From Candidatus Collierbacteria bacterium (GTDB taxonomy: Bacteria; Patescibacteriota; Microgenomatia; UBA1400; JACPES01): DNA of 64,000 nt. Below are positions 633 through 56,274 of this stretch, one piece after another. Under the pieces are notes generated by a model. The model ran no database searches and had not been told where the DNA came from. It worked only from the letters and a program-made list of their open reading frames with translations. Each line of letters starts with the position of its first letter. Positions within the stretch are counted from its first letter, which is position 1. The position numbers were made by a program, and so were the translations under genes. The stretch covers positions 12,779-76,778 of the forward strand of contig JACPES010000002.1 of assembly GCA_016183365.1 (NCBI GenBank). Reading direction: 5' to 3'.

Positions 633-1355
633 TTAAGTATCTTCGTTGTCGATCGCCAGCGGCGCGGAAATTAAAGTTGTTTCTAGTTCAAAATCGTTGT
701 CTCTCAACTCGACAAAACTCTGATAAGATGAAAATCCGGATTGAGAAAAATTTGACAGGATAATTTCCGTTTTAACCCAATCCTGTTTAATCTTTCCCAA
801 ATAGACAAGGTAAGAAGATGGCTGTGAAGTTATTTGATCATATAAGGATTCTCCCTTAAGGATACTCCCTGAAACCGGGTTTAAATGAATATATCTTGAT
901 ACATGCAATAATTGGGCATCTGATTCAATTAACACCGCCTTATATGATGACTGAAACAAAGTTCCCACGCGTCCATGCCGTTTATTGAAATACATGGTGT
1001 ACCTAGTCATCAACGATCTCATCATTAATTCCATTCCTTGGATATCTTTCTGTTTAATAAGAAAATGAAAATGGTTCGACATCAGACAATAGGCGATTAG
1101 GAAAACCCGGTCAGAGAAATTATTCAGTCTCAACTTCTTTTTGGCTATTTCTTTGTCTTTAGCCGATGAGGAAATGTCAGCCACTATTTTCAAAAGTTTT
1201 TCATGATCGCAAGGCAATAAATATTCTTTAAGATAGGTCAAAAAGACAGAGTAATCCTGTTTATCTTTAAAGATTTTTCTTTTATTCACTCCACGGTTAT
1301 ACACATGATAGTAACAATCCTCGCCGTAGATCTTAAGCGAATTTTTTCCCGGCAT
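633..1355 (-). CDS. IS200-like Y1 tyrosine transposase (REP-associated, RAYT-like)
   Basis: YHVYNRGVNKRKIF ... NHFHFLI ... GTLFQSSYKAVLIESDAQLLHVSRYIHLNPV are hallmark HuH/Y1 motifs. Paralog of the ORF at 4862-5560. Confidence 0.8.
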   Translation of the reverse strand: MPGKNSLKIYGEDCYYHVYNRGVNKRKIFKDKQDYSVFLTYLKEYLLPCDHEKLLKIVADISSSAKDKEIAKKKLRLNNFSDRVFLIAYCLMSNHFHFLIKQKDIQGMELMMRSLMTRYTMYFNKRHGRVGTLFQSSYKAVLIESDAQLLHVSRYIHLNPVSGSILKGESLYDQITSQPSSYLVYLGKIKQDWVKTEIILSNFSQSGFSSYQSFVELRDNDFELETTLISAPLAIDNEDT

Positions 1356-1374
1356 ATTATCACACTATCACAAA

Positions 1375-1432
1375 AAGGAGTCTCCTTCAAGGATCTAAGG
1401 AGTCTCCTTCAAGGATCCTTCAAGGATCTTCC
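1375..1432. repeat. short tandem/palindromic element (ggagtctccttcaaggatc units) between the transposase and rplL
   Basis: aggagtctccttcaaggatctaaggagtctccttcaaggatccttcaaggatcttcc; related copies at 26452-26480 and 39749-39786, and a half copy at 601-616. Confidence 0.6.
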
Positions 1433-1437
1433 GTCAC

Positions 1438-1469
1438 GGTTTTTTTGTTTTAAAATAAAACTTGAAGTT
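1438..1469 (-). terminator. putative rho-independent terminator downstream of rplL
   Basis: Palindrome aaaacttgaagtttt followed by a T-run on the minus-strand reading, immediately 3' of rplL. Confidence 0.4.
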
Positions 1470-1844
1470 TTATTTCAATTCCACAGTAGCTCCTGCAGCT
1501 TCGAGCTTTTTCTTAGCTTCTTCAGCTACGTCCTTTTTAACATTCTCGAGTAACACCGCGTTGCCTTTTTCAGTCAAGTCTTTGGCTTCTTTTAAGCCCA
1601 AATCCGGTTTGATTTCCCGGACTGCCTTAATAACGCCGATTTTGTTGGCTCCCGCAGCCTTCAGAATGACCGTGAATTCGGTCTTCTCTTCAACGGGTGC
1701 AGCGGCAGCCGCCGGAGCAGCAACCATAGCCATAGGAGCGGCGGAAACGCCGAATTTTTCCTCTAAAGCCTTAACCAATTCTGAAACTTCCAGGACTGTT
1801 AATTTTTCAATTTCGTCAACGATTTTTTGCAATTTTTCTGTCAT
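1470..1844 (-). CDS. rplL: 50S ribosomal protein L7/L12
   Basis: 124 aa; [33 protein letters not shown], an Ala/Pro hinge, and a C-terminal ...[40 protein letters not shown]. Confidence 0.9.
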
Positions 1845-1858
1845 CTAAAATCACCCCC

Positions 1859-2440
1859 TTAATTTTTATTTTTTCCAATCACATCCAACGCGTACACTAA
1901 TTTTTGAATATTTCCATTCAGCGTCCTGACCAGTTCATAAGCCGGCCCCTGCATCTGTTGCATAAGTTTTATCAAAAGATCTGTTTTACTCGGAAGTTTG
2001 GCCAATTCCATTACCTGTTCAACCGATAGGGGAGAATTGCCCAATAGTCCGCCTTTAATTACCGGTTTTTCATTGATTTTGGAAAATTCAGCCAAAACTT
2101 TAATCGGCAGAACTTCATCCTGATAGGCGAATAAAACGGCTGTCGGTCCCTGAAGAAATTCTGAATTCTGAATACTGAATACTGAATGTATTGTTGACTG
2201 TTTTTCTGATTCATCATTCGGAATTCGGTATTCAGTATTCGGTATTTTCTCTCCGAACGCCAGCGAGAGCAACGTATTCTTGGCGATTACCAATTCGCCC
2301 CCGGTCGAGATTACCCTTTCCCTCAATTGGGATTGGCCCAAAGCGTTTAATCCGGAATTGTCGGTAAACACGACGGATTTAGCTTTCGCGACCCGATCCT
2401 TTAAATCGGCTAATTGTTGAATATTGCGTTTAGATGGCAT
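1859..2440 (-). CDS. rplJ: 50S ribosomal protein L10, carrying an in-frame palindromic insertion
   Basis: The N-terminal KRNIQQLADLKDRVAKAKSVVFTDNSGLN is L10-like and the gene sits immediately upstream of rplL. The insertion spans 2155-2248. Confidence 0.8.
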   Translation of the reverse strand: MPSKRNIQQLADLKDRVAKAKSVVFTDNSGLNALGQSQLRERVISTGGELVIAKNTLLSLAFGEKIPNTEYRIPNDESEKQSTIHSVFSIQNSEFLQGPTAVLFAYQDEVLPIKVLAEFSKINEKPVIKGGLLGNSPLSVEQVMELAKLPSKTDLLIKLMQQMQGPAYELVRTLNGNIQKLVYALDVIGKNKN

Positions 2441-2697
2441 ACGATAAATAAATGGTTACAATGGTCAAAAAATTATAACCATTTTAGCCATTAGCGAGTG
2501 CTTTCGACGAGCGACAACCATTCAGCCATTTATTTTATTGCTTTTGTATTCCTACCGTCAGTCTTACCCAAGAGGTAGCGCTCACGGTCTTTGGAACTTA
2601 AAGAAAGTATATCACACTTTGATTTCTACTTTCACCCCCGGTTCCCCGCCAAAAACTCGTTTAACTCGCATTTAGGCGGGTAGGCATAGTGGCGCAG
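2441..2697 (-). promoter_or_regulatory. rplJ leader region, a possible L10 autoregulatory leader
   Basis: A 257-nt untranslated spacer between rplA and rplJ that contains hairpins. This position corresponds to the L10 leader in bacteria. Confidence 0.3.
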
Positions 2698-3030
2698 TTA
2701 TTTAATGTCTTCAATGTTTACTTTAATTCCGGGTCCCATAGTGGCACAAACAACCGTTTTGGTGATTTTAACCGAGGCGCCAACGGCGGTGAGAATTTCC
2801 GTCAGTTTCTCCGACAGAATTTCCGGTTTTTCCGATTGTTTGCCTAACACGGCATGCAAAAGCGGGGTTTTGCGTTCGGATTGAAATTTTCCGAATTTAC
2901 CGGGTTTATTTAATACCAAATGCAGCTCAATCTTGCCGTCGAATTTATTTGTGGCGGTTTGTTGAGCCAGCGTAATGGCTTCGAGAGGAGGATAGAGTTT
3001 GGCGCGGTCAACAGTAATTTGTTGGTTCAT
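2698..3030 (-). CDS. rplA: 50S ribosomal protein L1, minimal form that appears to lack domain II
   Basis: 110 aa. The N-terminus (DRAKLYPPLEAITLAQQTATNKFDGKIELHLVLN) matches the L1 N-terminus. The C-terminus (PLLHAVLGK...LTEILTAV...KTVVCATMGPGIKV) matches the L1 C-terminus. The roughly 100 aa middle domain is absent. Confidence 0.6.
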   Translation of the reverse strand: MNQQITVDRAKLYPPLEAITLAQQTATNKFDGKIELHLVLNKPGKFGKFQSERKTPLLHAVLGKQSEKPEILSEKLTEILTAVGASVKITKTVVCATMGPGIKVNIEDIK

Positions 3031-3039
3031 TATAAGATT

Positions 3040-3200
3040 AATCCGGTTATCAGTTTTCGGTTGTCAGTTATCGGTTCTAAGTTTGTCTTGCGAAGCAAGA
3101 TCCTGCTTTGCAGGACCGGTTTTCGGTTTGCCGGCCTTGAAACCGATAAACTGAAAACCGATTAACCTGAAACTGAAAACCAAAAAACAGAAAACTGATA
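3040..3200. repeat. palindromic element in the rplK-rplA spacer
   Basis: atcagttttcggttgtcagttatcggtt ... aaccgataaactgaaaaccgattaacctgaaactgaaaacc are inverted arms around cttgcgaagcaagatcctgctttgcagg. Confidence 0.5.
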
Positions 3201-3631: not shown

Positions 3632-3778
3632 AGAAATTTTCAATTTTCAATTCTCAATTTTCAATGAATTTTCAATTTCACAATTTACAATTACGTTTGA
3701 AAATTTAGTCATTTATTCAATGTAAATTGATTGAAAATTTAAAATTGTAAATTGTAAATTCTAGATCTTCGCTCGATT
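3632..3778. repeat. AT-rich palindromic repeat, family B (caatttacaat / attgtaaattgtaaatt arms)
   Basis: Shares ttttcaattctcaatttacaat ... ttgaaaatt ... aaattgtaaattgtaaatt with 30655-30812. Confidence 0.6.
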
Positions 3779-4756: not shown

Positions 4757-4810
4757 CGAAAAGTATAGCAGAAATCTGTTTACTGTTGTTGATTATTTCT
4801 TAATTGATAT

Positions 4811-4858
4811 ATCAATCAATTGAAGGTCTGACCTTCAATGTAGCCATATATCAATCAC
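4811..4858. repeat. REP-like palindromic element (attgaaggtctgaccttcaat + gtagccatatatcaatca)
   Basis: Perfect palindrome ttgaaggtctgaccttcaa. Copies at 5633-5690, 11104-11146 and, in frame inside mrdA, at 34126-34164. Two copies flank the transposase gene at 4862-5560. Confidence 0.75.
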
Positions 4859-4861
4859 TAT

Positions 4862-5560
4862 TTATTCAAGCCGGAGTTTTTTGGTCAATAGTTCGCTTCT
4901 CGGCAGGCAGATCCCAAGCTTGGTATACTCCCAAAATTCATTTTTGTTATTCAGAAGCGACATGACTGGTTCGGTATTTATCCATGGTTCGGGATGGTTT
5001 AAATATGATGACAGGCTACTCCACTGATATTTAGGCAAGTTTTGTTCATTCCATCTAGAAAATTCGCCATTGGCGGGGTTTACGTGAACATAGCGAACGG
5101 CTTGAAGTAATTGTTCATCATGAATAATGGCAACGGATTTGTATTTAGATTCAAATAGTCGTCCTTTGCGTTTTTCGACTTTATTGAAGTACATGGTAAA
5201 GGCTGTTCCCAGTCTTTGCATAAATTTAGCTATGGCAGTTTTCTTATCTTCAGATTCTCCCAAAACTAAATGGAAATGATTATTCATCAATATTAAGGCT
5301 ACAATATCCAAAATCGGAGGCCCGAATTCTTCCTCGGCTTTGCCAATCTTTTCCGGCGTAATTTTATCTCGTTTTAGCCAATCATCAAGTACCGCGATAG
5401 AAGGGGATTTTAACAATCTGGACAGTCTCAAAGTGGTAATAAACCGCCGGCGGTGGTTATCGTTCAGGAAAATCACTCGTTTATCAACTCCGCGATTATA
5501 AACATGAGAAAAGAACCTAACCGGAGTCATCGGAGTCATAATCAATATAACAATATCCAA
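4862..5560 (-). CDS. IS200-like Y1 tyrosine transposase (RAYT-like) flanked by REP copies
   Basis: HVYNRGVDKRVIF ... NNHFHLVL ... GRLFESKYKSVAIIHDEQLLQAVRYVHVNP. Paralog of 633-1355. Confidence 0.8.
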   Translation of the reverse strand: MDIVILIMTPMTPVRFFSHVYNRGVDKRVIFLNDNHRRRFITTLRLSRLLKSPSIAVLDDWLKRDKITPEKIGKAEEEFGPPILDIVALILMNNHFHLVLGESEDKKTAIAKFMQRLGTAFTMYFNKVEKRKGRLFESKYKSVAIIHDEQLLQAVRYVHVNPANGEFSRWNEQNLPKYQWSSLSSYLNHPEPWINTEPVMSLLNNKNEFWEYTKLGICLPRSELLTKKLRLE

Positions 5561-15530: not shown

Positions 15531-16484
15531 TTATGCCAGTTTTGTGTTAGGATGTCCGGCTAAGAATTGCTTCCAGGACACTGAATTTTTGCCTGGGAGC
15601 TGGACTTCGTCGATGACAAAAGAATGTTGAATGTTGAATGTTGCCCGCCCTCGGCCGAGCCGAGGCGAGGCCGGGGAATGTTGAATAAAGGAAAGATGGG
15701 TTTTTTTGATTGTAATTTCTGATTGTTTCCATTCGTCATTCTTCATTCGCCATTTAACATTGCTTTTTGCGCCGGGCCACGGCGTTACCGCCCTAATAAA
15801 TCTTTCTATCTCAACCGGTGATTTTTCCCAGTCAATCCGACCGGAGTCTTTGGTAAGTCTATGGGTGTAGGGAGTCGGAGATTTTAGCGGCTGCTTAACT
15901 TTATTTAATTGTCCGTTTTCTATCTTTTTTAGCGTTTCGACAATTAATTTACCACCGAGTATTCCTAGTTTTTTTGTGAGCGTTTCGCGGGTGTCAGATC
16001 TTATAATAGTTTTTGCTTGTCCCAACACCGGCCCCCGGTCTATTGCTTCAGTCATTTTCATAATGCTCACTCCGGTTTCTTTGTCACCTGCAGCTATTGC
16101 TTCAAAAACCGGAGATGCTCCGCGCCAGCGGGGTAAAAGCGAGGCGTGAACGTTAAGACAGCCGTATTTTGGCCACTTCAAAACTTCGGCCGGCAAAAAC
16201 GGCGGGCCGAAAGACGCCAAAACGATGGCGTCGGGTCGCGCAAGGCTGAAAGCGCAAGGCTGAAAGCTGAAGGCGGACGTAAGAGAATTGATGGATATGT
16301 CTTTAGGCTGTTTCGCTGGAATGATCTGAATTTTCTTTCGTCTTTCGTCCTTCATCCTTCGTCCTTTATCAATTGCTGCTTCACCCTTGGTGACAACAAT
16401 TGGTACTTCGTGCCCCGCCTTCAATAACGCCTCCAACACCGGCGGGGAAAACCACGGATCCGAGCCAAAGAAAATAATATTCAT
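15531..16484 (-). CDS. fmt: methionyl-tRNA formyltransferase with two in-frame insertions
   Basis: MNIIFFGSDPWFSPPVLEALLKAGHEVPIVVT ... LNVHASLLPRWRGASP ... IDRGPVL. Upstream codons back to 16571 lie in a repeat and were not used. Confidence 0.8.
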   Translation of the reverse strand: MNIIFFGSDPWFSPPVLEALLKAGHEVPIVVTKGEAAIDKGRRMKDERRKKIQIIPAKQPKDISINSLTSAFSFQPCAFSLARPDAIVLASFGPPFLPAEVLKWPKYGCLNVHASLLPRWRGASPVFEAIAAGDKETGVSIMKMTEAIDRGPVLGQAKTIIRSDTRETLTKKLGILGGKLIVETLKKIENGQLNKVKQPLKSPTPYTHRLTKDSGRIDWEKSPVEIERFIRAVTPWPGAKSNVKWRMKNDEWKQSEITIKKTHLSFIQHSPASPRLGRGRATFNIQHSFVIDEVQLPGKNSVSWKQFLAGHPNTKLA

Positions 16485-25860: not shown

Positions 25861-28032
25861 TCAATATTCGGAATTCAGTATTTTTATCGCTTCCGCGTAA
25901 TCCGGTTTCAATTCCAAGGCTTGGCGGTAAAGATTTTCGGCCTTGGATTTATCGTTCAATTCTCCATACATCCGGCCTAATAAATAGTATCCCCGGGGGT
26001 CGGTGGGGGATAAATCAACGGCTTTTTGAGCCAGTTTCAAGGCTTCATCAGTCAGATTTGGATCAATCTCCTTCATCAAAAATTCCATCTGGGTTTGAGT
26101 CCTGATAAAAGTCAAATTATATTTTGATTGGGCGGAAACGACTTTAAAATTTTTTACGGCTTCATTTTTTATCTCAACGGCGCGGGTTTCATTGTTGTTG
26201 GCCCAAGCCGAAATTGCGGCTACAGCCAATGATTCTGCCAGTTCGTTACGGAAAACCGGTTCATTGGGGGCTAAATTAACCGCTTGAGAGAGTGGTTCTA
26301 AGGCTTCCGGAATATATCCGGCTGAATAATATTGTCGGCCGAGATTGTATTTAAGATCAGCCTGAAACCGATTAAATATTCCGGAAATTACCCCAAAAGT
26401 AATAATGGCTATGATTGTTAGTAAAAAATACTTCCACCATAGCAATTTTATAAAGGAGTCTCCTTTAAGGATCTTCCCTTCTGTCGTGAAGACAACTGTC
26501 AAGCTCATAAATAAATATCTATAAGTCTCGGTGGTAACTGTGGAGAAACCGAAAAAGTTGACGGTTTCAACCCCGAGCAGGGCCGCCAGAATTGCGACAA
26601 GAACGTCATTGCGAGGAGTCCCGCCTTTGGCGGGACGACGTGGCAATCCCGATGGGATCGCCACGCTTCGCCCGTCAGACTGGCTTGCTCGCGATGACCT
26701 AACTATCCAAACTCCAAACCATCCCAACAACAGTAAATGTGTCCCTAATCCAAACAATCCCGTATTCGCCGCCAAATTCAGCCATTCATTATGAGCCTTG
26801 TTATATAAAAAATTCCATTCCGAGGTTTGGTTTGCTTCTTTGTGCCGGACTTGCCAGTAGGTCAGGCCGAAAGTCTCCGGTCCGGTTCCAAAAATTGGAT
26901 TCCTCTTGGCAATTTCCCAAGCTCCGTTCCAAACTATGCGGCGGATATCTCCGGATTCGGTGCCGCCTAGCTCCGACTTGCGGAGATTAATTGCTAATTG
27001 TTGATTGCTAATTACTGATTGTTCAGATTGATTTTTTACCAGCTGAATTGTTTTGAAAAACCAATCTCTGGCGGGATTATTAGTGATGAAAACCAAAATC
27101 AAGATGATTGAATGAATAAAAACAAAGGATTTGAGATTTTTGCTTTTTGCTTTTTGTTTATTGTTTATTGCGAACACGGTGAGCCAAAACACAACATCCA
27201 TTACTGCAAAACCAAGAAGTCCCGAGCGGGATTTTGTGAAGAGGAGGGCAGTAAAAAAAACAAAAAACAAAAAACAAAAAACAATCATATTTTTATTACC
27301 GTTCTTTGCTTTTTGCTCTTTGCTTTTTGTCATGAGCATCCATGTAAGCGGGATGATCATGACGAGGAACCCCGCTAGCCAGTTCGGCTGTCCCTGGGTA
27401 GAAAAAACTCGGGTTGCGACGTCCTGAATCCAGAAATCGCGGTCAATCCCGAAATGTTGAAAGATGGCGTAAAGGCTGACGATAGTGGCGGAAGAGAGAA
27501 TAGCAAATATCGGAACACTCGGAATACTCCGAAAACCAGAAAAATCAGAGAATCGGAGATTCAGAGAGCCCGAAGCTCCGGTCTTCTGATTATCAGATTT
27601 TCTGACCTTTCGGCTCTCCGAGTTTTCCGAGTTTTCCGAAATATTCGCCACAAATGCGTAATACAGCACCGTATAGCTAATCGTGCTCACAAGCCCTCCG
27701 TTAAATCTTCCGTACCAGCCAAACCACGAAATATGATGATCTATACTATATATAGTACTGACAACCTGTGACAGTAAAAATAGCAGAATGGGAATATCCA
27801 GCGGGGTCCAGCGCAAAATAATCCGGCCCGCCAAAATCATTCTTATTGTCCAGACGGCTATTATCAGTGTAGTCATTAAATACACAAACAGCATTTTGGG
27901 AAATTCAAACACTTCGCTGCTTGGAATCCAAAAGATTAAGGGCAAAAAGAAAAATAAAGTTATAAACAGGGCGCGAATGGTTAGTTGCAGGGTTCTATCA
28001 AGCCGGATAAACATTAAGTTTGATTTTAGCAA
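25861..28032 (-). CDS. O-antigen ligase/Wzy-like polytopic membrane protein with C-terminal TPR repeats
   Basis: Many TM helices, a Wzy_C-like region (NGAWEIAKRNPIFGTGPETFG) and C-terminal TPR repeats (GYYLLGRMYGELNDKSKAENLYRQALELKP). It carries several inserted repeat elements. Confidence 0.55.
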   Translation of the reverse strand: MLKSNLMFIRLDRTLQLTIRALFITLFFFLPLIFWIPSSEVFEFPKMLFVYLMTTLIIAVWTIRMILAGRIILRWTPLDIPILLFLLSQVVSTIYSIDHHISWFGWYGRFNGGLVSTISYTVLYYAFVANISENSENSESRKVRKSDNQKTGASGSLNLRFSDFSGFRSIPSVPIFAILSSATIVSLYAIFQHFGIDRDFWIQDVATRVFSTQGQPNWLAGFLVMIIPLTWMLMTKSKEQKAKNGNKNMIVFCFLFFVFFTALLFTKSRSGLLGFAVMDVVFWLTVFAINNKQKAKSKNLKSFVFIHSIILILVFITNNPARDWFFKTIQLVKNQSEQSVISNQQLAINLRKSELGGTESGDIRRIVWNGAWEIAKRNPIFGTGPETFGLTYWQVRHKEANQTSEWNFLYNKAHNEWLNLAANTGLFGLGTHLLLLGWFGVWIVRSSRASQSDGRSVAIPSGLPRRPAKGGTPRNDVLVAILAALLGVETVNFFGFSTVTTETYRYLFMSLTVVFTTEGKILKGDSFIKLLWWKYFLLTIIAIITFGVISGIFNRFQADLKYNLGRQYYSAGYIPEALEPLSQAVNLAPNEPVFRNELAESLAVAAISAWANNNETRAVEIKNEAVKNFKVVSAQSKYNLTFIRTQTQMEFLMKEIDPNLTDEALKLAQKAVDLSPTDPRGYYLLGRMYGELNDKSKAENLYRQALELKPDYAEAIKILNSEY

Positions 28033-30654: not shown

Positions 30655-30812
30655 CTATTTATGTAATATTGTGAGATAGAGAATAATTTTCAATTCTCAA
30701 TTTACAATAAATTTACAATGAATCAATACTTAAATTTTCAAACGTTTGAAAATTAAAATATTGAAAATTCAATGAAAATTGTAAATTGTAAATTAATTCC
30801 AAACTGATATTA
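30655..30812. repeat. AT-rich palindromic repeat, family B, copy 2
   Basis: ttttcaattctcaatttacaat ... ttgaaaatt ... aaattgtaaattgtaaatt. Confidence 0.6.
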
Positions 30813-32686: not shown

Positions 32687-34446
32687 AGTTTGGACCGTTG
32701 GAATTATCAATCGCTGATAGAAAACAAAATTTTTTGCCGCTGGGAATAATGGTCGTAATTATGATGTCCGCAGTGGGTATAATTTTGGCCAGACTGACGG
32801 AATTGACGGTTTTTCGCGGAGGAGAATTAAGGCGCCGGGCGGACGAAAACAGGATTTTGGTTAGGGTGGTCCCGGCTCCCCGGGGAATAATTTTTGATAA
32901 AAATGGAAAGGCATTGACTCGGAATACTCCGGATGGCAGAGCCTATCCATTTGACCGGAATTTTTCTCACTTGACCGGATATATCGGCGAAGCTTCAGAG
33001 GAAGAAATTAAAAGCGATTCATCTCTAAACCCTGGTAATATTTTAGGAAAAACCGGATTGGAAAAGCAATACGATAAGGAGTTGCGCGGAATCGATGGAG
33101 CTGAATTGATTGAAGTGGATGCAAATGGCAATTTACTTGAGGTTTTAGAGGATCAATTACCACAGGCGGGAAAAGATATTTATACTTATTTAGATGTGGA
33201 TTTACAAGTTGCCATGACTGAAAATTTAGGGGGAAGAAAAGGGGCGGCTGTGGCAATTGATCCGGTGGATGGCTCAGTTTTGGGATTGGTTTCCAGTCCG
33301 TCGTATGACCCGAATATATTTCAGAAAACTCTGAATACAATCATTCCGGAAAACTCAGAAAACTCGGATGGCCGGAAAGTCGGAATGTCAGAAAATCAGA
33401 AAGTCGGACCCTCTGGTTCTCCGAGTTCTCCGAGTGTTCTGGACTTATTGAATGACACCGTCAATATGCCATTATTTAACCGCGCCATTTCCGGCGAATA
33501 TCCGCCGGGATCTATTTTTAAATTGGTGACGGCGGCAGCGGGATTGTCAGAAAATAAAATTAACCGCCAAACTTTAGTTAGGGATACCGGTGAGATCAGA
33601 GTCGGAGACTTTAGATTCGGCAATTGGTATTTTGATCAGTATGGAAAAACCGAAGGCGAAATCGGAGTGGTCAGGGCTTTAACCAGAAGCAACGATATTT
33701 TTTTCTATAAAGTCGGGGAATGGTTGGGGCCGGATCTATTAGCAGGATGGGCTAAAAAAATGAAACTGGGTAAAAAAACAGGTATTGATTTATCCGGAGA
33801 AGCCGATGGTTTGGTTCCTGACCCTAAATGGAGGGAAAAGGCTACAGGTGAAAGATGGTTCTTGGGAAATACTTATCATATGGCCATCGGTCAGGGTGAT
33901 GTTCAATTGACTCCATTGCAGGCGGCGGTGATGACCAGTACGGTGATTACCGGCAAACGCTGTACGCCGCGGATTAAACAATTAACAATCAGCAATCAGC
34001 AATCAGCAATTTCTTGTGAAGATACAGGAGTTTCTAAAAGTAACCGCAATTTAATTCTTGAAGGAATGGTGGGATCCTGCAGTCCGGGCGGGGTGACCTT
34101 TCCGTTTTTCCCTTGGAATCAATCCATTGAAGGTCAGACCTTCAATGAAGCCATACATCAATCAAACGGTATGAGCGGTTATCCGGCTGTGGCGTGTAAA
34201 ACTGGCACGGCCCAGCATGGTGGAAAACAGACTAAACCGCACGCGTGGATTGTAGTCGCTGCCCCAATTATTGAAAGCCAACCATCAGTAAAATCAGCAA
34301 TTAGCAATTCTTCTTATCAACTCGATTTAGACTCTCCCAAACGAATAATTTTAGTCGTTCTTGTCGAAGATGCCGGCGAGGGCTCCTACGAAGCCGCTCC
34401 TGTGGCCAAAAAGATTTTGGAAAAATGGTTTGAAACCAATAAATAA
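32683..34446 (+). CDS. mrdA: penicillin-binding protein 2 (peptidoglycan transpeptidase) with three in-frame repeat insertions
   Basis: AAVAIDPVDGSVLGLVSSPSYDPN ... SIFKLVTAAAGL (SxxK) ... KTGTAQ. Insertions at 33347-33440, 33978-34012 and 34126-34164. Confidence 0.85.
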   Translation: MKFGPLELSIADRKQNFLPLGIMVVIMMSAVGIILARLTELTVFRGGELRRRADENRILVRVVPAPRGIIFDKNGKALTRNTPDGRAYPFDRNFSHLTGYIGEASEEEIKSDSSLNPGNILGKTGLEKQYDKELRGIDGAELIEVDANGNLLEVLEDQLPQAGKDIYTYLDVDLQVAMTENLGGRKGAAVAIDPVDGSVLGLVSSPSYDPNIFQKTLNTIIPENSENSDGRKVGMSENQKVGPSGSPSSPSVLDLLNDTVNMPLFNRAISGEYPPGSIFKLVTAAAGLSENKINRQTLVRDTGEIRVGDFRFGNWYFDQYGKTEGEIGVVRALTRSNDIFFYKVGEWLGPDLLAGWAKKMKLGKKTGIDLSGEADGLVPDPKWREKATGERWFLGNTYHMAIGQGDVQLTPLQAAVMTSTVITGKRCTPRIKQLTISNQQSAISCEDTGVSKSNRNLILEGMVGSCSPGGVTFPFFPWNQSIEGQTFNEAIHQSNGMSGYPAVACKTGTAQHGGKQTKPHAWIVVAAPIIESQPSVKSAISNSSYQLDLDSPKRIILVVLVEDAGEGSYEAAPVAKKILEKWFETNK

Positions 34447-41668: not shown

Positions 41669-41671
41669 ATT

Positions 41672-41750
41672 TTGTTATTTTGTTATCTTGTTATCTTGTT
41701 ACGAATCAAGATAGCAAGCTAGCAAGATAGCAAGCTAGCGATTATTCTTG
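41672..41750. repeat. long palindromic hairpin between the dCMP deaminase and thyA-like genes
   Basis: ttgttatcttgttatcttgttacgaatcaagatagcaagctagcaagatagcaa. Confidence 0.5.
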
Positions 41751-47599: not shown

Positions 47600-48496
47600 A
47601 TGATTATCGATGGGAAAAAATTAGCGGCCGAAAGAGAAAAGAAACTAGCGGGAGAAGTTAGCTTGCTTACGAAAAAAATCGGCCGTCGGCCAAAACTTCT
47701 GGCGGTGGAATTAGCCGATGATGAGGGGAGCAGGTTGTATCTTAAATTAAAGCGAAAAGCGGCAGAAAGGTTGGGAATAGAATTTGAAGTTATAAAAAGG
47801 CCAGGCCTTTCCGGGAAAGGCCTGGCCTTTTTGACTGGTTTTGATATAGATGGGGTGTTTGTTCAGCATCCCAGGGGTTATGACAAACAAAAATGGCAGG
47901 AATTGGTCGATCAAATCCCGCCGGAAAAAGATGTTGATTGTTTGACCAGTGAAAATCTTCAATTGATTAAAGACGGCAAGCCAAGATTTTTGCCGGCTAC
48001 CGTTAAGGCTGTTGGCTACGTCATTCTGAGCGTAGTGAAGGATCCCGTCGGGCCTAATCCTAAATGGGATTCTTCAGTCGTTTCACTCCTTCAGAATGAC
48101 GGGTTATTAAGGCATTTCCTTCTCAACAAGCACGTCGTCATTCTCGGTCGCAGTCCGATTCTTGGTTTACCCCTCTTCTGGTGGTTCAATAGTTTTGGCG
48201 GGAAAGTGACTCTGTTGCATTCGCAAACAAAAAACAAAAAACAAAAAACAAAAAACTCCGATATTCTTATTTCTTCCGTCGGCAAACCCGGAATTATCAT
48301 CGGCAAAATGGTGAAAGAGGGAGCGATTGTCGTTGATTGCGGTTCGCCTTCGGGCGACGTAGCCTTCGGCGAAGTCGCCCCCAAAGCTTCTGCCATCACC
48401 CCGGTCCCCGGCGGCGTCGGCCCCTTAACCGTGGTAAGTTTGATGGAAAATGTGGTAAAATCGGCAAAAGACACATATGCCAAAAAAAGACGATAA
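47600..48496 (+). CDS. folD: bifunctional methylene-THF dehydrogenase/cyclohydrolase FolD with three in-frame repeat insertions
   Basis: MIIDGKKLAAEREKKLAGEV ... LLAVELADDEGSRLYLKLKRKAAERLGIEFEV ... C-terminal GGVGPLTVVSLMENV. Confidence 0.8.
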   Translation: MIIDGKKLAAEREKKLAGEVSLLTKKIGRRPKLLAVELADDEGSRLYLKLKRKAAERLGIEFEVIKRPGLSGKGLAFLTGFDIDGVFVQHPRGYDKQKWQELVDQIPPEKDVDCLTSENLQLIKDGKPRFLPATVKAVGYVILSVVKDPVGPNPKWDSSVVSLLQNDGLLRHFLLNKHVVILGRSPILGLPLFWWFNSFGGKVTLLHSQTKNKKQKTKNSDILISSVGKPGIIIGKMVKEGAIVVDCGSPSGDVAFGEVAPKASAITPVPGGVGPLTVVSLMENVVKSAKDTYAKKRR

Positions 48497-53622: not shown

Positions 53623-55062
53623 TTATTTAAATAATTGAAGTTTTTGAAATGCTAGGCGTTTTTTATCCCAGAATTTTCCGCGGCGGCAGAGATTAGAGAT
53701 ATCCGATTTGTTTTCTAGCAGCGTCTCGACCACGATCTCTAAAAAAATCGTGTTTTGAGATCCCTTGACTAAGATTATTTCTCCGCCGGAGATAAATTCG
53801 TGCTTCTCAATTATGGAGATTTGTCTGGCAGAGCCGGATCTCGCTCCGCGAGACGATCCTGCCAATAAAAACTTGGCCGCTTCTCCGGCAGTCAAAAACC
53901 ATTCGACCGGCAGTTTCGACTGTTTGATTATCGGTAGAGCGTATTGTTTCATCAATGGTCCGACGAGGACTATTTTATCCGCGGTTTTCACCGCTACCTC
54001 AGCTATTTTTTCGTGTTCTATTTTAGCCTGCGAACCCAGTTCGCGCATGTCCCCCAAAACCGCGATTTTGGTTTTATTTCCTCCAATATTTTGAAGCATT
54101 TTCAGACTGCCGATTACCGTTTCCCGCGAGGCGTTATAAGAAGAATCAATGATGGCGGTATTTTTAATTCCCGGAAAAATCCAACCGCGCCCCGATGGTA
54201 GTTTGAATCCTGCCGAGATTTTTTCGGCTATGGCTTGAGGATCTTGACCCAAACAAATTCCGGTGGCGAAAGCCGCCGATAAAGTGAATCCGTAAAATTC
54301 CGGCAAAATCATATTTTTTAATGAAATTTGATATTCCCGTTGTTTAAATGAAAGTAATACCTCTGTTTGAGAAAGCGAAGGAATAACGTTTAAAATTTTA
54401 ACATCGGCTGCCGGCGATTTTCCAAAGGTTAAAGTTCTTGCTCCAGCTGATTTCGGTTTCAGTGAATTTATTTCCGGTTGATCGGCGTTTAAAATAGCCC
54501 ATTGCAAATTTTGATTTTCGGTTATAAGTTTTCCCTTCTCTGCGGCGATGGACTCTATTAAGGTCAGACATTTCCGTACGACCAGGTCTGACCTTTCAAA
54601 CTGTTCTGTATGTACCGGCAAAACGTTTAAAATTACAGCTATATCCGGTTTTAAGATTGTCAGCAAATAGCCCATGTTTTTGGGCGAAGTCGGTTCGTCG
54701 ATGCCCATTTCGACGAGATAACAATCGAAAGAATTGCTAATTGCTGATTGCTGATTGTTAATTGTTTTAATAGCTTGAATTGGCGCCAATGCGAGGATGC
54801 GTAGCCAGTCAAAAATAGGATGAACCGACTCGCCGAAATGAAGGCCGAGAATGTCGGCCGGAATGCCGGATTCGGAATTGGCTTTTTCGGCAACTTTAAG
54901 ATTTTTAAATTTTAGTTTTAATACCGGCGCGATTGCGTCTATGGCGCTGGATTTTCCGGCCGAACCGGTGATTCCGACAATAAAAGGATTGCTTTTCTTA
55001 AGCGCAAACAAGGCCCAAAATCTAAGCCACCATAAAATCGGCCAACGAAAAATGCGTTTCAT
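53623..55062 (-). CDS. murF: Mur ligase family protein (MurF-like UDP-MurNAc-peptide D-Ala-D-Ala ligase)
   Basis: IVGITGSAGKSS P-loop ... NSESGIPADILGL. Carries an in-frame NQQSAIS repeat insertion. Confidence 0.65.
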   Translation of the reverse strand: MKRIFRWPILWWLRFWALFALKKSNPFIVGITGSAGKSSAIDAIAPVLKLKFKNLKVAEKANSESGIPADILGLHFGESVHPIFDWLRILALAPIQAIKTINNQQSAISNSFDCYLVEMGIDEPTSPKNMGYLLTILKPDIAVILNVLPVHTEQFERSDLVVRKCLTLIESIAAEKGKLITENQNLQWAILNADQPEINSLKPKSAGARTLTFGKSPAADVKILNVIPSLSQTEVLLSFKQREYQISLKNMILPEFYGFTLSAAFATGICLGQDPQAIAEKISAGFKLPSGRGWIFPGIKNTAIIDSSYNASRETVIGSLKMLQNIGGNKTKIAVLGDMRELGSQAKIEHEKIAEVAVKTADKIVLVGPLMKQYALPIIKQSKLPVEWFLTAGEAAKFLLAGSSRGARSGSARQISIIEKHEFISGGEIILVKGSQNTIFLEIVVETLLENKSDISNLCRRGKFWDKKRLAFQKLQLFK

Positions 55063-55152: not shown

Positions 55153-56274
55153 GTGTTGACTGTTTTGTTTTTTTTAATTCTGCTTTCGGTTCTGGTTTTA
55201 GTCCATGAACTGGGGCATTTTATCGCCGCCAAGAAATTGGGAGTAGTGGCGGAAGAGTTTGGTTTGGGTTTGCCGCCCAAAGTCAGGCGGCTTTTTGTCT
55301 GGCAGGGGACGGAATTTACCCTCAACTGGCTGCCGCTGGGTGGGTTTGTGAAGATGAGAGGGGAAGATCGGGAAATAAAAGACAATGAGCAAAAAACAAT
55401 GAGCAAAGAACAAAAAGCAAAAAACAAAGAGCAAGGATTTTTCTTTGCGCAACCGCCATGGAAGCGGGCGGTGATTTTGGTGGCCGGGGTATTTATGAAC
55501 TTGGTTTTGGGAGTGGCGGCATTTACCTCGGTTTATACCGTCTTGGGAATTCCGGAAGAAAGAGACGTGGTGGTTATCGACGGAGTGGCGCCAAATAGCC
55601 CGGCGGAGCGGGCACAACTAAATCAAAACGATGTTGTGAACGAGTTCAAAGTTCAAAGTTCAAAGTTCAAAGTTAACGACACCAAGCAATTCATAGAATT
55701 AATTAATCAGCATCGAGGGGAGGAAGTCACGCTCATTATTAAGCGTGGACAAGAGGAAAAAGAAATTGTTGTTACTCCGCGACTTGAATCCGAAACTCCA
55801 GAAGGCGAGGGAGCGCTGGGGGTGGCGATTTCCAATATCCAGTTTATCCACTATCCCCGGTGGCAGATGCCGTTTAGGGCGTCCGTGACTGGGTTTAAGG
55901 AAGCTTTGGCATGGGGACGGAATATTATCGGGGGTTTGGGGAAAATGGTTTTCGATCTGGCGACTCACGGCAAAGTCCCGAATGATTTGGCCGGGCCGGT
56001 GGGAATCGCCAAAATTACCGGCGAAGTGGCCAAGAGAGGTTGGATTCCGCTTTTCCAATTGGCCGGAATTTTATCAATCAATTTAGCGGTGGTTAATATC
56101 CTGCCGATTCCGGCTCTGGACGGCGGCAGGTTGCTGTTTTTAGGGATCGAAAAACTGAGAGGAAAGCCGATGGATCCGAAGAAAGAACGTTTGGCCCATC
56201 TGATCGGCTATACATTGCTAATCTCTCTTTTAATTTTGATTACCATCAAAGATTTAATCGGCGGAGTCGGATAA
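55153..56274 (+). CDS. rseP: RIP metalloprotease RseP (site-2 protease with PDZ domain)
   Basis: HELGHFIAAKKLGV ... PDZ region ... NLAVVNILPIPALDGGRLLF. Confidence 0.8.
   Translation: MLTVLFFLILLSVLVLVHELGHFIAAKKLGVVAEEFGLGLPPKVRRLFVWQGTEFTLNWLPLGGFVKMRGEDREIKDNEQKTMSKEQKAKNKEQGFFFAQPPWKRAVILVAGVFMNLVLGVAAFTSVYTVLGIPEERDVVVIDGVAPNSPAERAQLNQNDVVNEFKVQSSKFKVNDTKQFIELINQHRGEEVTLIIKRGQEEKEIVVTPRLESETPEGEGALGVAISNIQFIHYPRWQMPFRASVTGFKEALAWGRNIIGGLGKMVFDLATHGKVPNDLAGPVGIAKITGEVAKRGWIPLFQLAGILSINLAVVNILPIPALDGGRLLFLGIEKLRGKPMDPKKERLAHLIGYTLLISLLILITIKDLIGGVG

Follow-up and report, generated by a model that had tools for sequence, protein, structure and literature searches.

Rickettsia palindromic elements (RPEs), among the closest described parallels to a palindrome translated within an essential bacterial gene, are palindromic sequences of approximately 100-150 bp that fall into several families, lie in frame in unrelated and often essential genes, are translated, and are compatible with the fold of the host protein (PMC10969869). 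MITEs, miniature transposable elements with inverted repeats, can likewise give in-frame fusions through their intragenic copies (PMC10969869), and the concept of the REPIN, a hairpin built from inverted repetitive extragenic palindromic (REP) sequences, has been set out elsewhere (PMC3116915). Heptanucleotide simple sequence repeats (SSRs), such as the cyanobacterial short tandemly repeated repetitive (STRR) sequences, GGGAATC in Xanthomonas and TAACTGA in the Beggiatoaceae, display an over-representation of period 7 and sometimes form inverted stem-loop pairs (PMC4692102, PMC4679880); these are overwhelmingly intergenic, and intragenic periods are expected to be multiples of three (PMC4679880). 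The special status of 7-nt repeats in bacteria remains unexplained (PMC4692102). Here we report on a 64,000-nucleotide stretch of contig JACPES010000002.1 (the window; GC content 43%) from an uncultivated groundwater bacterium, placed by its L10 and Fmt homologues in Candidatus Collierbacteria of the Microgenomates within the candidate phyla radiation (CPR), in which the ribosomal protein gene rplJ (L10, or uL10) carries an in-frame palindrome built of heptamer arrays. We propose, with moderate confidence, that the palindrome belongs to a dispersed family of heptamer-repeat elements, selfish or neutral in character, and that the permissive loop in which it is translated tolerates it. Our literature searches did not turn up any report of heptamer or palindrome insertions in genes of CPR bacteria, and the main text of a survey of CPR ribosomal proteins mentions neither uL10 nor repeats.

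The rplJ element resembles the RPEs in being a palindrome of 100-126 nt that lies in frame, leaves the open reading frame (ORF) and the predicted fold intact, and occupies a loop predicted to be disordered. It may also be part of a family spread over unrelated genes, as RPEs are: related palindromes were observed in rplJ, fmt and an FNR-like gene, but the copies sampled are a handful, and units of these types turn up in unrelated taxa too. Its host likewise has a reduced genome. The likeness is drawn to the published description of RPEs. It differs in its CPR host, in consisting of 7-nt arrays around a variable centre where an RPE has one conserved, element-long consensus, and in that the arms of such elements can flank native coding sequence, as in fmt, or occur as single-arm arrays. 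A preliminary description of this locus had likened the palindrome to the RPEs; the functional analogy is apt in respect of the predicted disordered loop, the unrelated host genes and the constraint at the nucleotide level, but the arms are 7-nt tandem arrays of a kind not described for RPEs, and the taxonomic position of the host makes it unlikely that the element is itself an RPE. With the STRR-type repeats the element shares tandem 7-nt units in three or more copies and an excess of period 7, the window holding 15 such arrays under the criteria applied, where Markov shuffles predict 0.1, and arrays of periods 6 and 9 being essentially absent. Unlike those repeats, 10 of the 15 arrays lie in housekeeping ORFs and are read in three frames, many are arranged as palindromic pairs, and the arms are conserved over deep divergence.

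Architecture of the rplJ element

The element is an imperfect palindrome of ~100 nt in which two inverted 7-nt tandem arrays flank a variable centre. A repeat search recovered an inverted repeat with 24-nt arms (2164-2187 and 2223-2246, 88% complementary), and pairing reaches 50-nt arms (2139-2188 and 2215-2264, 74% complementary), to give 126 nt overall around core arrays at 2157-2246. Tandem Repeats Finder (TRF) assigns period 7 to both arrays, with 4.4 copies of AATACTG at 2157-2187 and 4.4 copies of ATTCGGT at 2216-2246. On the coding strand the element reads ACC GAATACT GAATACC GAATTCC GAATGAT GAATCAG, a 17-nt spacer, and CATTCAG TATTCAG TATTCAG AATTCAG AATT. As seven is not a multiple of three, each heptamer array is read in all three frames; translation runs through the element without interruption (...GEKIPNTEYRIPNDESEKQSTIHSVFSIQNSEFLQGPTAV...), the stop-free peptide NTEYRIPNDESEKQSTIHSVFSIQNSEF forms residues 67-94 of L10, and tryptic peptides predicted to span the insert include IPNDESEK and QSTIHSVFSIQNSEFLQGPTAVLFAYQDEVLPIK. 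Sense RNA of the segment folds with -24.2 kcal/mol (z = -4.1) and the antisense strand with -35.3 kcal/mol (z = -5.9), and none of 200 shuffles was as stable in either case. The preliminary description had placed an inverted repeat inside the rplJ frame, translated without a stop and lengthening L10 to 193 aa. Its coordinates and its account of the repeat agree with both repeat analyses, the ORF is open throughout, and both strands of the segment, whose folding it had proposed as a check, fold beyond their shuffles. What it had not recognised are the heptanucleotide tandem repeats in the palindrome and the many similar features across the window, where the pattern GAATNNNGAATNNNGAAT has 14 matches against 1.2 expected.

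The ORF at 1859..2440 (-) matches Ribosomal_L10 (Pfam PF00466) with E = 2e-14, its product scores 127 bits against the NCBIfam L10 equivalog (cutoff 85), and the gene order nusG-rplK-(mini-L1)-rplJ-rplL is kept in relatives. In an alignment of 48 homologues the insert falls where the uL10 N-terminal domain has a loop of variable length, which connects the AKNTLLxLA helix to the GPTAV strand. The L10 proteins of close, insert-free Collierbacteria are 166-168 aa long, share ~70% identity with the window protein and read IQTENNELMTGP at this site. In a survey of 166 loci the AKNTL-GPTA stretch of the window came to 49 aa, while most bacteria have 26-30 aa and insert-free Collierbacteria 23 aa, a loop 26 aa shorter than that of the window in the nearest relatives lacking the insert. 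The insert adds ~23-26 residues to one loop of the domain, and in comparison with Thermus thermophilus L10 (4v63_BJ) five residues are replaced by query residues 65-92. An AlphaFold2 model based on the alignment retains the fold of L10, including helix 55-63 and strand 101-105, and assigns insert residues 65-89 a predicted local distance difference test (pLDDT) score below 50; the insert is predicted to be a disordered loop on an intact L10 fold.

The same element, 100% identical in a gene that is 97% identical, is present in an independent assembly (L172, ENA ERZ28563641), which rules out an assembly artefact, and related elements occupy the same L10 site in at least eight other assemblies (JGI, ENA, NCBI, Logan). 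Together with the ortholog alignment, in which close Collierbacteria lack the segment, this bears out the earlier suggestion of a genuine, lineage-specific insertion. In an L10 tree built without the loop, the loop states are patchily distributed, with short ENNEL forms, ENNE duplications, single G-rich arrays and hairpins of the two types described below. A profile search of genome contigs with the L10 alignment yielded one close Collierbacteria species representative, and a metagenome scan and exact-protein look-ups yielded more. The one apparent presence/absence polymorphism, between contigs L166 and L088, whose flanks are 99.7-100% identical and whose loops differ, was not used. At 1306-1409 of L166 the 5' end of rplL is foreign, brings a ribosome-binding site of its own and is spliced into sequence otherwise 99.7-100% identical to L088; L166 is probably an assembly chimera, and its alternative loop allele should not be read as a same-strain polymorphism.

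The L10 loop varies in other ways across the Microgenomates. Daviesbacteria-type contigs (L032/L136-L140 and L110-L115) have loops of 57 aa and 53 aa with different, GC-richer insertions, and the loop of L012 holds a CTACNGA/CAGTAGA heptamer hairpin. Many Microgenomates loops of normal length are themselves heptamer-derived, a common motif, LPTxNYxLPT, being encoded by (ACTACCA)n arrays (for example at 4162-4192 of L127).

Related elements and the conservation of their arms

The arms of the rplJ element define a family, type I, composed of (GAATACY)4-5 and (RGWATTC)4 around a variable centre. Type I arms are also found in rplJ of L005, L088 and L172, and in rplJ of L168 even though the flanking rplJ DNA is only 59-64% identical to that of the window. 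The element is identical in the window and L172, and copy number and length differ between clades. A further type I hairpin lies in frame in an unrelated FNR-like NAD_binding_1 gene (255-375 of L173); this copy and that in rplJ of L168 have in common an alternation of AGAATTC and AGTATTC and a terminal TGCTTCT, and differ in the centre. The 3' arm is conserved in L005, L088, L168 and L173, and the centre is not conserved in relatives with the same arms. Type II, a sister family with arms (GAATGAC)n ... (CATTCAA)n, occupies the rplJ site in L001 and L169 (the L169 protein is 52% identical to that of the window), occurs in fmt of the window and of L170, and is represented by a single arm, (GAATGAC)3, in frame in a GT4-like glycosyltransferase gene of a distant Microgenomates genome (L127, 7362-7388). 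A search of protein databases with a synthetic type I plus type II peptide was swamped by unrelated heptamer arrays read as short ORFs (in Shigella prlF, Verrucomicrobia and other cases) and missed the L10 and fmt proteins, its one informative match being the FNR-like gene (P0300).

Sequence relationships between unrelated loci extend beyond these two families. The elements in the Wzy/TPR gene (Wzy-B) and in the gene for PBP2 (PBP2-A) are homologous in both arms and centre (~105 nt aligned, 77% column identity), a second array in the PBP2 gene (PBP2-B) and that of the murF-like gene differ by one base in 36 nt (97% identity), and two intergenic palindromes (3635-3760 and 30685-30794) share 81% identity over 112 nt. 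The 10 arrays in still-open ORFs are distributed over rplJ (2), fmt (2), Wzy/TPR (2), PBP2, murF-like and rseP (2), and topA, folD and the 3' end of rpsB hold additional arrays that have other periods or do not reach the threshold. Inverted pairing is common, being found at both fmt elements, both Wzy elements, PBP2-A, the two intergenic palindromes above and a third at 41669-41739 (Table 1). The rplJ element is the visible tip of a lineage-wide phenomenon. Per 10 kb, contigs of close Collierbacteria carry 2.7 period-7 arrays and those of a more distant group 12; the figure for all other loci, 1.17 Mb in total, is 0.7. In the Collierbacteria species that lacks the insert (L004, 12.8 kb; L003, 19.7 kb) we found no period-7 array, whereas the window and L001 have 2.3-2.7 per 10 kb. 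These numbers are small, and hint that the process generating the arrays is active in some lineages only. In a Collierbacteria metagenome-assembled genome (GCA_016219325.1), 20523-20644 of L171 is a 122-nt (GGAGTAA)17 array whose minus-strand frame is open over 192 codons.

Patterns of divergence separate the arms from the genes that carry them. Between the window and L168, identity at codon positions 1/2/3 is 84/75/72% in the insert and 61/75/46% in the flanks, and position-3 identity is higher in the rplJ loop than in the flank in three distant pairs (p = 0.011, 0.007 and 0.036). In fmt, 18 of 21 third positions are identical in the arms, compared with 125 of 285 in the rest of the gene (p = 0.0002), and the native beta-strand spacer between the arms diverges as the rest of fmt does. 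The divergence of this spacer excludes recent transfer of the whole segment. Since the arms are equally conserved at all codon positions and above their host genes, while the spacers are not, the constraint lies on the nucleic acid and not on the protein: sequence comparison indicates that it is at the level of DNA or RNA, and irrespective of codon position, that the arms are maintained or renewed. Differences among orthologous rplJ inserts are mostly non-synonymous, and peptide-level selection on the insert appears unlikely. RNAalifold identifies 21 pairs in which the GAAT/ATTC cores are invariant; at one position, A-U in one type is replaced by G-C in the other. With double changes in 2 of the 21 pairs, covariation was too weak a basis for claiming a selected structure.

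The reading frame is respected throughout. Every rplJ allele is in frame, with inserts of 18, 20, 22, 23 or 26 codons. In all type I lineages the codons GAA TAC CGA stand where the consensus would give GAA TAC TGA, the second unit being GAATACC at the sole position where T makes an in-frame TGA, and both type II lineages have GAA TTA in place of GAA TGA (units GAATTAA or GAATTAC). The (GAATACT)n arrays of viral contigs, by contrast, are non-coding and have stops in every frame. From the preserved frame and the avoidance of stops, we infer that the rplJ insert is translated; it probably has no function at the protein level.

Two side observations concern fmt. A 33-nt GC-rich palindrome (15643-15675, CCCGGCCTCGCCTCGGCTCGGCCGAGGGCGGGC, translated PASPRLGRGRA) is nested in the 3' heptamer arm of the fmt type II element and is missing from the otherwise identical arm of L170, and several fmt homologues carry another recurrent insert, GETSxERSRR, at a different site.

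Table 1. Positions of the rplJ element, related arrays and neighbouring genes in the window.
Feature	Position	Strand	Remarks
rplJ (uL10) coding sequence, host gene of the element	1859..2440	minus	193 aa; open ORF; Pfam and NCBIfam matches
5' arm (coding strand)	2216..2246	minus	ACC GAATACT GAATACC GAATTCC GAAT, ~4.4 heptamers; encodes PNTEYRIPN; TRF
Variable centre/loop of the rplJ palindrome	2188..2215	minus	degenerate units GATGAAT, CAGAAAA; encodes DESEKQSTI
3' arm (coding strand)	2157..2187	minus	CATTCAG TATTCAG TATTCAG AATTCAG AATT; encodes HSVFSIQNSEF; TRF and inverted repeats
Outer stem extension, downstream side (coding strand)	2139..2156	minus	50-nt-arm inverted repeat, 74% complementary
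Outer stem extension, upstream side (coding strand)	2247..2264	minus	50-nt-arm inverted repeat
Intergenic heptamer-repeat palindrome, rplK/nusG gap	3635..3760	.	homologous to 30685-30794
Type II sister element in fmt	15622..15755	minus	arms (GAATGAN)x3-4 and (CATTCAA)x4, flanking native beta-strand
Second in-frame heptamer hairpin in fmt	16238..16366	minus	(GGACGAA)x4 ... (TTCAGCC)x4
A-rich/T-rich heptamer arrays in inverted arrangement, Wzy/TPR gene	27128..27329	minus	
In-frame palindromic element, Wzy/TPR gene (Wzy-B)	27507..27642	minus	homologue of PBP2-A
In-frame palindromic element in PBP2 (PBP2-A)	33335..33453	plus	same family as 27507-27642
(CAATCAG)n array in PBP2 (PBP2-B)	33976..34011	plus	97% identical over 36 nt to the murF-like array
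(CAATCAG)n array, murF-like gene	54732..54767	minus	matches the PBP2-B array
Two in-frame heptamer arrays in rseP	55377-55434 and 55643-55674	plus	
Two IS200/RAYT-like Y1 transposase homologues	633..1355 and 4862..5560	minus	Pfam Y1_Tnp; NF047646 43 bits, cutoff 80

Origin and maintenance of the elements

We propose that heptamer-repeat palindromes form a dispersed, DNA-level family in Collierbacteria and other Microgenomates, present in unrelated genes and in intergenic DNA. To survive in an essential gene, such an element would need a total length that is a multiple of three, unit variants that remove stops, and a peptide that falls in a permissive surface loop. Its origin and spread may involve 7-nt replication slippage combined with hairpin-mediated template switching or ectopic copying, or a transposition activity. 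The families common to unrelated genes and the conservation of the arms beyond that of their host genes are evidence for copying between loci or for sequence-specific maintenance, and the elements are presumably mobile.

A number of observations weigh against dispersal. The type I copies sampled are few, and arrays of the same units occur in unrelated organisms. (CATTCAA)n, translated as (HSTFNIQ)n, is found in up to ~10 copies in the prlF antitoxin genes of Shigella sonnei and E. coli, and a large number of metagenome ORFs with no relation to these also contain it (P0241-P0272), which shows that this heptamer expands recurrently in distant taxa. (GAATACT)n arrays are present in seven viral contigs, where they are non-coding and unpaired, with stops in every frame, in unrelated contexts of 24-66% GC; the scans of viral contigs found no type II hairpin. 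Unit identity alone is therefore no proof of common descent. Comparison of the filled site in the window and L001 with the empty site in L004 revealed neither a target-site duplication nor a clean, sharp-edged empty site, the boundaries being blurred by divergence of the loop. The fmt arms flank a native, conserved beta-strand and do not make up one contiguous insertion. In folD, an (AAACAAA)n array (48225-48256) encodes TKNKKQKTKN where E. coli FolD reads TKNLRHHVEN; on this comparison the array has taken the place of native residues and left the length as it was. Its A-rich unit is seen again in rseP, in the Wzy-like gene and at the 3' end of rpsB. The fmt and folD cases both fit generation in situ better than cut-and-paste insertion. 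Finally, certain variants of the L10 loop, such as ENNEQKTENNE, have plainly arisen by duplication of the native sequence on the spot.

Several of these observations also support the main rival explanation, in which the process is purely local: native seeds in a slippage-prone loop region with 7-nt periodicity expand, quasi-palindrome template switching makes or corrects the inverted arm, nothing moves between loci, and similar units elsewhere reflect convergence, there being few viable stop-free heptamers, some of which expand recurrently everywhere. In addition to the ENNE duplications, the single G-rich arrays at the same L10 site, the fmt and folD arrangements and the prlF and viral arrays, it can draw on the heptamer-derived L10 loops of normal length and on the heptamer SSR excess of many bacteria, which has been ascribed to polymerase slippage (PMC4692102, PMC4679880). 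We regard it as the less probable account. Neutral local arrays should drift, whereas the arms remain far above the synonymous-site conservation of their hosts over deep divergence and the spacers do not; the composite Wzy-B and PBP2-A elements have the same order of unit types and the same centre at unrelated loci; the type I copies of L168 and L173 agree in unit alternation and in a terminal motif that is not part of the repeat; and the PBP2-B and murF-like arrays are identical over 36 nt bar one base. A different account of arm conservation would be a functional nucleic-acid element, in which the hairpin or the GAAT periodicity is selected for rplJ-rplL translation or mRNA stability, or for binding of a repeat-recognising protein. 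The independence of arm conservation from codon position, the invariant cores, the compensatory switch between the two types and the significant folding z-scores would all suit it, but it is improbable, as close relatives manage without the element, the same class of element occurs in many functionally unrelated genes and in intergenic DNA, and only 2 of 21 pairs are doubly changed. Moreover, the better-folding strand has no consistent relation to transcription, being antisense for rplJ and fmt (through G-U pairs) and sense for the Wzy elements, with PBP2-A equal; a strand-specific functional RNA or single-stranded DNA was dropped as a candidate for this inconsistency. Searches for known signals were likewise negative: an Rfam scan of the entire window found 4 tRNAs only, with neither an L10 leader nor any family at the rplJ hairpin; the 257-nt stretch upstream of rplJ (2441-2697) gave no Rfam L10-leader match, though it has room for a regulatory leader; and a promoter and terminator scan of 1400-3200 made no call at the hairpin. 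Still less probable is an adaptive protein extension, the additional 23-26 residues serving as a lineage-specific addition to the L7/L12 stalk base of a reduced CPR ribosome. Lineage-specific regions are frequent in CPR ribosomal proteins (PMC9297842) and the insertion site is reused across Microgenomates; against this, the insert diverges mostly at non-synonymous positions while synonymous ones are conserved, it is predicted to be disordered, its presence, absence and type vary among close relatives, and the same peptides appear in unrelated proteins. An assembly or amplification artefact, such as an inverted chimera, might be suspected because metagenome contigs can be chimeric, as the related contig L166 probably is, but it is effectively refuted by the independent assembly, the related elements at the same site in the other assemblies, and the constant preservation of frame and avoidance of stops.

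The dispersed-element interpretation that we prefer leaves room for comparison with mobile elements proper. Like MITEs, the elements are small, non-coding in origin, and have conserved terminal inverted repeats around a variable interior (window, L005, L168, L173); unlike in MITEs, the inverted repeats are internally tandem-repetitive. No target-site duplication was evident at the blurred loop boundaries. A cognate autonomous insertion sequence (IS) with the same ends was not found in the 64-kb window, where the sole transposase-like genes are two Y1 homologues resembling REP-associated tyrosine transposases (RAYTs), both within 4 kb of rplJ. Like REPINs, the elements are inverted short repeats that form hairpins of ~100 nt and are dispersed in the genome. 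REPs, however, are extragenic and flank their RAYT gene, whereas the rplJ element is intragenic and the RAYT-like genes of the window are flanked by other palindromes (1375-1428, two copies of AAGGAGTCTCCTTCAAGGATCT, and 4789-4869, with 40-nt arms), which are not GAAT heptamers. The RAYT-like gene at 633..1355 directly follows rplL and is syntenic in L001, L004 and L168, and thus behaves as a resident and not a mobile gene; L004 has neither insert nor arrays in its 12.8 kb. With a score below cutoff, different flanking palindromes and synteny in insert-free L004, we found no link between the RAYT-like genes and the elements. It is unlikely, though worth stating, that Collierbacteria and other Microgenomates have an active, sequence-specific system that creates, copies or homogenises the heptamer-arm palindromes, with the conserved RAYT-like Y1 (HUH) protein encoded next to rplL as candidate enzyme and the elements as a REPIN-like form of mobile DNA, routinely translated in loops of essential genes. 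If such a system did exist, the recognition requirements of its enzyme would explain arm conservation far beyond that of the host genes.

The neighbouring mini-uL1 and implications for CPR genomes

A separate observation concerns the gene between rplK and rplJ. The 110-aa ORF at 2698-3030 (-) is a mini-uL1 that retains domain I only: it aligns to L1 residues ~14-78 and ~163-225, the best match in a single stretch is to a construct of L1 domain I by itself (2oum_A), and relatives carry ORFs of 105-122 aa at the same position. Published internal deletions in Microgenomates uL1 span only 20-40 aa (PMC9297842), and the mini-uL1 of the window is thus a larger deletion than any described there.

If our interpretation of the heptamer-repeat palindromes is correct, small CPR genomes tolerate pervasive repeat DNA in core genes, including rplJ, fmt, PBP2, murF-like, rseP and folD. 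The "selfish DNA in protein-coding genes" known from Rickettsia would then have a second case, independent and different in structure, in another lineage with reduced genomes, and loops of conserved proteins would have a means of varying rapidly. Elements of this kind would confound the alignment, phylogenomics and annotation of CPR marker genes, among which ribosomal proteins, L10 included, are standard. The conservation of the arms at the nucleotide level would offer a concrete route to the responsible mechanism, and with it a concrete way to address the special status of 7-nt repeats in bacteria.

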